A stretch of 64,000 nt of DNA from NCBI GenBank assembly GCA_964016885.1, contig OZ024755.1, positions 13,764,001 through 13,828,000 of the forward strand, written 5' to 3'. The position numbers and the translations under genes are program-made. The DNA comes from Eledone cirrhosa. Its lineage: Eukaryota. Under the pieces are notes generated by a model. The model did not search any database, was not told where the DNA came from, and saw only the letters and a program-made list of their open reading frames with translations. How positions within the stretch are numbered: position 1 is the stretch's first letter; each line of letters opens with the position of its first letter. Shown here one piece after another: positions 28,234 to 28,653 of the stretch.

Positions 28234-28235
<2 letters not shown>

Positions 28236-28645
28236 CGTTTCTGAATTTGTTTAGCAAGATTCTTTATCTGAAATCGTGTGTTGAAACCGATATTGTTATG
28301 CTTTGGGATGGTCATGTTGCCAATAAGAAACACACGCACCAGTTGCTTTCACTCCAATTTATTATAAATAAAAATTATAAATTTAAGAATTTATAAATTT
28401 CCGGTTGGTTGGACAGAACAAAGGAGAGGTACAAAACAAAGAAAAGAATCCCCAGTCACTGAAGAGGTCACAGAATGTGTGACGAAAGAACTTTGACAAT
28501 ATTGGAACAACCGTCCGGTTATGGAACCAACCAACCAATCGGAAATTTATAAATTCTTAAATTTATAAATTTAATTTATAATAAATTGTAGTGAAAGCAG
28601 CTGGTGCGTGTGTTTCTTATTGGCAACATGACCCTCCCAAAGCAT

Positions 28646-28653
<8 letters not shown>
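28234..28653. mobile_element. Inverted-repeat mini-PLE: ~123-bp inverted repeats around a hammerhead-bearing core, plus a ~55-bp tail, in (TA)n
   Basis: Arms 28290-28412 / 28531-28653; 28243-28320 is homologous to 39853-39928 at the 3' end of the PLE at 39850-41299. Confidence 0.85.
28455..28497 (+). ncRNA. Minimal type I hammerhead ribozyme motif, canonical core
   Basis: GTCA-CTGAAGA-g-GTCACA-gaatg-TGTGAC-GAAA-GAAC-TT-TGAC. Confidence 0.8.

Follow-up and report, generated by a model that had tools for sequence, protein, structure and literature searches.

The 420-base fold-back at 28234–28653 of the window (the whole 64-kb stretch of DNA analyzed here) is best explained, with a probability of roughly 0.8, as two head-to-head copies, 179 nt with a tail and 243 nt without, left by one extremely 5′-truncated PLE-related insertion into (TA)n. 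It derives from a PLE 3′ region, has a tail on one end, and stops at two recurring 3′ ends of its repeat family. An initial annotation had offered an extreme 5′-truncated inverted insertion and a retrozyme-like non-autonomous unit as possible origins. The former is favored by the core-to-arm order found in all four sequencing runs that were aligned, by the location of the junction at 28411–28412 and by the recurring ends; the latter is opposed by the single hammerhead, the lack of a tandem unit and the rarity of the breakpoint in the family.

Architecture of the fold-back

Self-comparison of the window recovered the two arms at the coordinates originally reported (Table 1), with a complementarity of 95.1%, and this was the sole close inverted pair reported in the window once microsatellites had been masked. 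The six mismatches fall at 28309/28634, 28343/28600, 28354/28589, 28370/28573, 28374/28569 and 28404/28539. The unpaired extension of the left arm, first given as about 55 bp reaching (TA)n, is 56 nt long and directly adjoins the left TA run, while the final 4 nt of the right arm run into the right one. Both ends thus lie inside (TA)n, where a target-site duplication is unreadable. The description of the element as ORF-less holds, since its longest ATG-started frame has only 32 aa, and an ATG near the hammerhead is followed by a stop two codons later.

The whole fold-back is predicted to fold into a 123-bp stem (−203.5 kcal/mol). A MIR530 match on it in a local Rfam scan was rejected, as it reflects the long stem alone. 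No conserved structure emerged when the tail region was folded (z 0.63 and −1.08), and a whole-window repeat search returned only simple repeats among the matches listed.

Table 1. Features of the fold-back and of the neighboring PLE in the window.
Feature	Positions	Strand	Basis or remark
Left (TA)n run, inferred insertion target	28190–28233	.	sequence
56-nt tail, 3′-most family sequence, copy A only	28234–28289	−	82% to 39852–39899; X1, X5, X7 contigs reach 28234–28243
Copy A, 179-nt 5′-truncated copy of family 3′ end (arm + tail)	28234–28412	−	self-comparison and run alignments
Left arm, 123 nt	28290–28412	.	self-comparison
GG microhomology, head-to-head junction	28411–28412	.	arm alignments stop at 28412, core alignments start at 28411
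Copy B, 243-nt 5′-truncated copy (hammerhead region + arm, without tail); inverted pseudo-LTR	28411–28653	+	joint 28412/28530 in 4/4 runs; colinear with 40-kb PLE
PLE-type type I hammerhead	28455–28497	+	descriptor search; features as in PMC4209133
Hammerhead helix I	28455–58/28494–97	+	4 bp
Hammerhead core CUGAAGA	28459–65	+	descriptor match
Extra G between A9 and G10.1	28466	+	descriptor match
Hammerhead helix II	28467–72/28478–83	+	6 bp
Hammerhead GAAA	28484–87	+	descriptor match
Hammerhead helix III		+	2 pairs only, A-U and G-C, around 2-nt AA loop
Right arm, 123 nt, stops at family's short end	28531–28653	.	71 X1 contigs with (TA)n before 28290
Right (TA)n run	28650–28725	.	sequence
Sister-family PLE, 5′-truncated	39852–41297	−	sequence comparison, descriptor, protein alignment
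Sister PLE 3′ end	near 39852	−	alignment
Sister PLE hammerhead, predicted cut after 40107	40149–40095	−	descriptor
ATGGCGTAGG in sister PLE 3′ region	40185–40176	−	motif search
ORF remnant of sister PLE: end of RT region, CX4CxxC linker, GIY-YIG-like end	41297–40380	−	protein alignment

The host might have retained a stem of this length for the long double-stranded RNA hairpin that it forms, either as a source of small RNAs or as an editing substrate. We consider this very unlikely: none of the six arm mismatches is compensated, which fits neutral decay, and the fold is a consequence of the inversion itself. The mismatches are split evenly, with the left arm carrying the rare base at three and the right arm departing at the other three (the latter judged from the variants listed). 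Both arms have a G at 28300, a minority allele in the family (A in 76% of the X1 depth and 89% of the X21 reads), which fits descent from one template. From the corrected distance between the arms (0.050), and with a calibration of 0.09 for 25 My that comes from another annotation (PMC13282606), the age of the fold-back would be about 7 My (2.5–15), a rough estimate. It has likely decayed in place since insertion.

The repeat family in sequencing runs

A run search listed 23 runs, with a best share of 0.58 of 41 sampled words, and thus no exact match to the 28-kb copy. Four of these runs (X1, X5, X7 and X21, the last a reduced-representation run) were aligned to 28234–28530 at 85% likeness. 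The family was found in 8,408 contigs of X1, 21 of X5 and 626 of X7, and in 118,288 of the 12,467,656 reads of X21 (0.95%); contig counts, read counts and depths in the runs are not copy numbers. The fold-back consists of 3′-end sequence from a highly abundant repeat family, which seems to be very large.

The natural order in this family is upstream sequence, hammerhead core, arm and tail, and the joint 28530/28412 was present in all four runs. In other family copies the core continues into upstream sequence rather than into an inverted arm: 27,925 X21 reads carry different sequence ahead of 28411, with ATGGCGTA at its end, and one X5 contig also has its core starting at 28411. The ATGGCGTA motif of the family upstream sequence recurs in the 40-kb PLE at 40185–40176. 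Because the arm alignments end at 28412 and the natural upstream sequence of the core includes 28411–28412, the GG at these positions belongs to both halves.

All four runs share the short end at 28290, with (TA)n placed directly before it in 71 X1 contigs, a climb in X21 depth from 7,023 to 9,615, and contigs of X5 and X7 that start there. Contigs of all three contig runs (X1, X5 and X7) reach 28234–28243, and therefore the tail is family sequence, 46–56 nt long; the long end was placed at about 28234–28244. A pile-up of X21 ends at 28244 was considered as the long end and rejected as a restriction artefact, the X21 molecule ends at 28244, 28359, 28380 and 28388 all lying on AATT sites.

Long, near-perfect inverted arms without an ORF in a TA-rich target are also what would be expected of a MITE of a DNA transposon, with terminal inverted repeats around a captured hammerhead. 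This origin is scarcely credible for arms that are internal PLE 3′ region and directly adjoin the core in family copies from 4/4 runs; moreover, one arm has a 56-nt extension, unlike terminal inverted repeats that lie flush with both ends.

No ORF linked to the fold-back's own family was seen among the contigs examined; the sister family alone was tied to an ORF. Two exact-pattern scans found no locus in metagenome contigs. Hammerheads are not mentioned in the main text of the one octopus repeat annotation searched (PMC13282606), and a literature search covering few subscription papers returned no report of a fixed-breakpoint fold-back PLE derivative or of cephalopod hammerheads.

Both families keep AANATGGCGTAGG about 45–56 nt upstream of the hammerhead core (40176–40188 on the minus strand of the 40-kb element, and upstream of 28411 in the fold-back's family), and the 28-kb inversion point falls on its last two bases. 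This motif resembles a YY1 site and may mark a pseudo-LTR promoter. Two further ATGGCGTAGG matches lie at 31273 and 52250; no hammerhead was found near either with a relaxed descriptor.

The inversion breakpoint

The inversion point is a 2-nt GG microhomology. Further copies with the 28412/28413 breakpoint, a search for which had been proposed in the initial annotation, can account for only a small share of the depth in X1 and X21 and for none in X5 and X7. Depth at 28413, understood from the table heading as records aligned across both sides, was 492.5 in X1 against 117,537 in the next bin, 186 in X21 against about 30,500 in neighboring positions, and 0 in X5 and X7. These values set a ceiling, since a single A>T change would extend the alignment of an ordinary copy across the point, and they correspond to at most 0.4% (X1) and 0.6% (X21) of the neighboring depth. 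X21 has low power for this junction because its library was cut at AATT; 55 of its 186 reads at 28413 carry A>G, from two starts. Other inversions of the same type (28299>28458 and 28335>28433) were present among the 15 of 71 joints listed, and none of the pieces listed spans the fold-back stretch. Within the family this breakpoint is uncommon.

We considered the possibility that the fold-back is copied whole by PLE proteins, as a MITE-like 420-bp inverted pseudo-LTR unit with one hammerhead and a fixed breakpoint at tens of loci. The summed X1 contig depth of 492.5 exceeds that of apparently single-copy contigs (about 6–10) and could represent tens of breakpoint copies, and the X21 reads that cover the point include a common variant. 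Putative non-autonomous PLE derivatives have been described in Chlamydomonas (PMC8557442), and rotifer pLTRs sufficed for mobilization in trans (PMC3846280). Against this stand the low share of the breakpoint in two runs and its absence from the other two, a signal that a single A>T in ordinary copies could mimic, the existence of other breakpoints, and the fact that the 3′ region of such a transcript would be buried in a 123-bp duplex. On balance this explanation is improbable. If it were true, the fold-back would be the founder or a member of such a subfamily, inside a very large, possibly non-autonomous cephalopod hammerhead repeat family.

A PLE-type hammerhead

The hammerhead descriptor had exactly two matches in the window, at 28459 (+) and 40140 (−), whereas 100 shuffles gave 0.04 per window. 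In each motif a base is inserted between A9 and G10.1, helix II spans 6 bp, helix I is short, and helix III consists of two pairs closed by a 2-nt loop. With its CUGANGA/GAAA/UH core, extra base at 9–10.1, long helix II, short helix I and minimal helix III, the stretch 28455–28497 has the features of a PLE-type type I hammerhead, and the cut is predicted after U28493 (triplet CUU). It had originally been described as canonical, but the canonical type I motif has a helix I of about 6 bp and a helix II of 4 bp and matches Rfam; here the helix sizes differ, and local scans of both motif copies with the Rfam hammerhead models gave no match at E ≤ 10. It is instead a Penelope-type variant. In a Rfam scan of the whole window, microRNA models on microsatellites dominated, and no hammerhead was among the matches listed (the best 150 of 281).

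The two copies share four of six helix II pairs, the remaining two being compensatory; in helix I, two of four pairs are identical, one is compensatory and one is broken (C·U in the 40-kb copy). The stems had initially been called entirely different yet still paired: they do pair, apart from the C·U break, but they are far from entirely different. When the hammerhead regions alone were folded and compared with chance (z −0.34 and −2.69), one of the two was no better than chance.

At least eight variable sites in the family are listed for 28455–28497, and six of them lie within the 10 positions left free by the fold (hypergeometric p 0.0008; records at least 85% alike, among the rows listed). 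In X7, a run of a different organism, the only depth peaks are at the hammerhead and at 28254–28313, both of them segments common to the 40-kb element. Because most of the variable sites listed fall in fold-free positions and the X7 depth peaks on the motif, the hammerhead is constrained in the family; this is silent on selection for the fold-back. Covariation as a sign of a selected RNA structure thus stands for the hammerhead of the active family, but not as evidence for selection on the fold-back.

These features agree with those of PLE hammerheads in the survey by Cervera and de la Peña (PMC4209133), which have the extra base at 9–10.1, a long helix II, a short helix I, G10.1–C11.1 and a tiny helix III. 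That survey describes numerous covarying hammerhead families per genome, with compensatory changes between families, mostly as single motifs that probably come from truncated PLEs; it also describes hammerhead pairs 100–700 bp apart on opposite strands, and a single Schistosoma motif without detectable cleavage. In contrast to the published motifs, loop III here (GAAC, with GGAC and GAGC variants) is not a perfect palindrome.

In 73% of X21 reads the cleavage base is A instead of U (triplet CUA compared to CUU in the 28-kb copy), and A28498T, present in 64%, gives helix I a fifth pair. The 28-kb hammerhead is probably weak as a monomer, judging from its extra base and helix sizes, and a monomer cleavage assay would probably have a weak or negative outcome even for a genuine motif. 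Loop III variants occur at 28488–28491, namely GGAC (38% of X21 first-mate plus-strand reads) and GAGC; in a dimer of either, tandem G·A pairs would replace the A·A pairs of the 28-kb copy. Two of the joints listed lie at 28492, one base off the predicted cut: 28492>28273 (24 reads, three starts) and 28353/28492 (84 reads, one start). These are too few to separate from chance.

Neighboring PLEs

A search within the window aligned 28242–28318 with 39852–39928 (81.8% over 77 nt, E 1.7e-16), recovering the match of the tail and arm start to 39853–39928 noted initially. Both halves of the fold-back are colinear with the 3′ region of this 40-kb PLE, with scores of 76 (copy B, 28411–28653) and 105, compared to maxima of 45 and 41 in 200 shuffles each. 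The fold-back is about 80% alike in two segments, with a divergent middle that is about 47 nt shorter; ATGGCGTAGG, the hammerhead and the tail are common to the fold-back's family and this PLE. The proposed link to a GIY-YIG PLE 12 kb away therefore stands as a relationship, but the comparison indicates a colinear sister family rather than the direct parent.

A Pfam search of the minus-strand frame 41297–40380 gave no match. Its best longer relative was an Octopus vulgaris RT-domain protein with 60% identity (among 11 matches in 791 candidates), which makes an octopus or a relative of one the probable host, and in an alignment with five further proteins CX4CxxC followed by Y-x-x…YIGET was kept, C173, C178 and C181 being invariant in all seven proteins aligned. 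A domain scan of five relatives gave one weak GIY-YIG match (E 0.0076, below the cut-off) and one weak RT match. Neptune and Nematis PLEs are recognized by a CX2-5CxxC linker ahead of a C-terminal GIY-YIG (PMC8557442), and the CX4CxxC of the 40-kb PLE has this form. Judging from this linker, the element probably belongs to another clade than Poseidon.

A perfect 30-nt palindrome lies at the 5′ junction of the 40-kb PLE (41300–41329). Because its center repeats the flank past the TA run at about 41424–41433, the sequence suggests a template switch onto target DNA. At 63765–63838 there is a weak remnant of the 3′ region of the same family (80% over 46 nt).

A second, unrelated PLE family is represented by a long but broken element at 23400–26300 (−), with remnants of RT (Pfam E 2.6e-15) and GIY-YIG (E 5.9e-05). 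Its 3′ region contains a third PLE-type hammerhead, with the core at 23495, an A in place of U4 and UA as a palindromic loop III (the background of the relaxed descriptor was 0.05 per window). The window comparison gave no DNA match between this element and the fold-back. One short interspersed repeat is present in two copies, at 26440–26600 and 39680–39850, each adjoining a PLE end.

Comparison with known systems and a model for insertion

An inverted, 5′-truncated copy combined with a 30–40 bp tail at one end is typical of PLE insertions (PMC8557442, PMC3846280, PMC8969392), and the fold-back matches this published “inverted pLTR plus tail” footprint, which makes it an ordinary structure that has already been described. 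As in EN+ PLE insertions (Craig et al. 2021, PMC8557442; Arkhipova et al. 2013, PMC3846280), an inverted 5′-truncated copy lies at the head of a 5′-truncated copy, the tail is on one end only, the target is a microsatellite and there is microhomology at the 5′ junction. It differs from these in that the truncation removes all coding sequence, the inverted copy exceeds the other in length, the tail measures 46–56 rather than 30–40 nt, and there is no readable target-site duplication.

The mechanism that we infer is drawn from Poseidon of Anolis carolinensis, studied in vitro (Frangieh et al. 2024, PMC11167929). The Poseidon protein, a predicted dimer, cleaves and extends both strands of AT-rich DNA; reverse transcription begins at two sites, so that two 3′ ends bound the tail; insertion in vitro had no need of hammerhead cleavage, and the hammerhead was cleaved only with the protein present. 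Unlike the fold-back, where the nearby ATG soon meets a stop, Poseidon has an ORF that starts inside its hammerhead.

By analogy, a PLE protein would have opened the TA run with a nick in each strand. One of them would have primed reverse transcription at the tail end, yielding a 179-nt cDNA that became the top strand from the left TA run. From the other nick, synthesis would have started 56 nt farther upstream, at the internal site whose ATAT can pair with the target, yielding a 243-nt cDNA that became the bottom strand from the right TA run. The 3′ ends of both cDNAs would then have annealed at GG/CC, each being completed on the other. The template could have been one RNA or two, and the hammerhead would be a passenger from the parent's pseudo-LTR. 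Self-priming (snap-back) has been discussed for PLE insertions (PMC3846280). Snap-back of one cDNA alone was rejected: the core is missing from the top-strand cDNA and the tail from the bottom-strand one, and a layout with both cannot arise from either by itself.

Animal non-LTR retrozymes (PMC7229834; bioRxiv 10.64898/2026.07.22.740005) are likewise short, non-coding and kin to PLE pLTRs, with a type I hammerhead, and the fold-back falls within their size range of 150–450 bp. As a retrozyme monomer it would have been excised and circularized by hammerheads. Retrozymes are defined by tandem, head-to-tail units with a hammerhead in each, however, whereas the fold-back is one head-to-head unit with one hammerhead and the window has no head-to-tail unit. 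Its motif is of the PLE type rather than the canonical type of retrozymes, and there was no tandem end-to-start joint among the 15 of 71 joints listed. A retrozyme origin is thus highly doubtful.

As a single locus, the fold-back carries little weight, but it is a clean, minimal PLE insertion footprint. Two independent priming events, at the two known start points respectively, are required for its layout, with a 2-nt microhomology joining their products. Collected genome-wide, such stubs would cheaply probe whether PLEs use double target-primed reverse transcription. Caution is also needed in annotation, since stubs of this kind resemble MITEs or microRNA hairpins.
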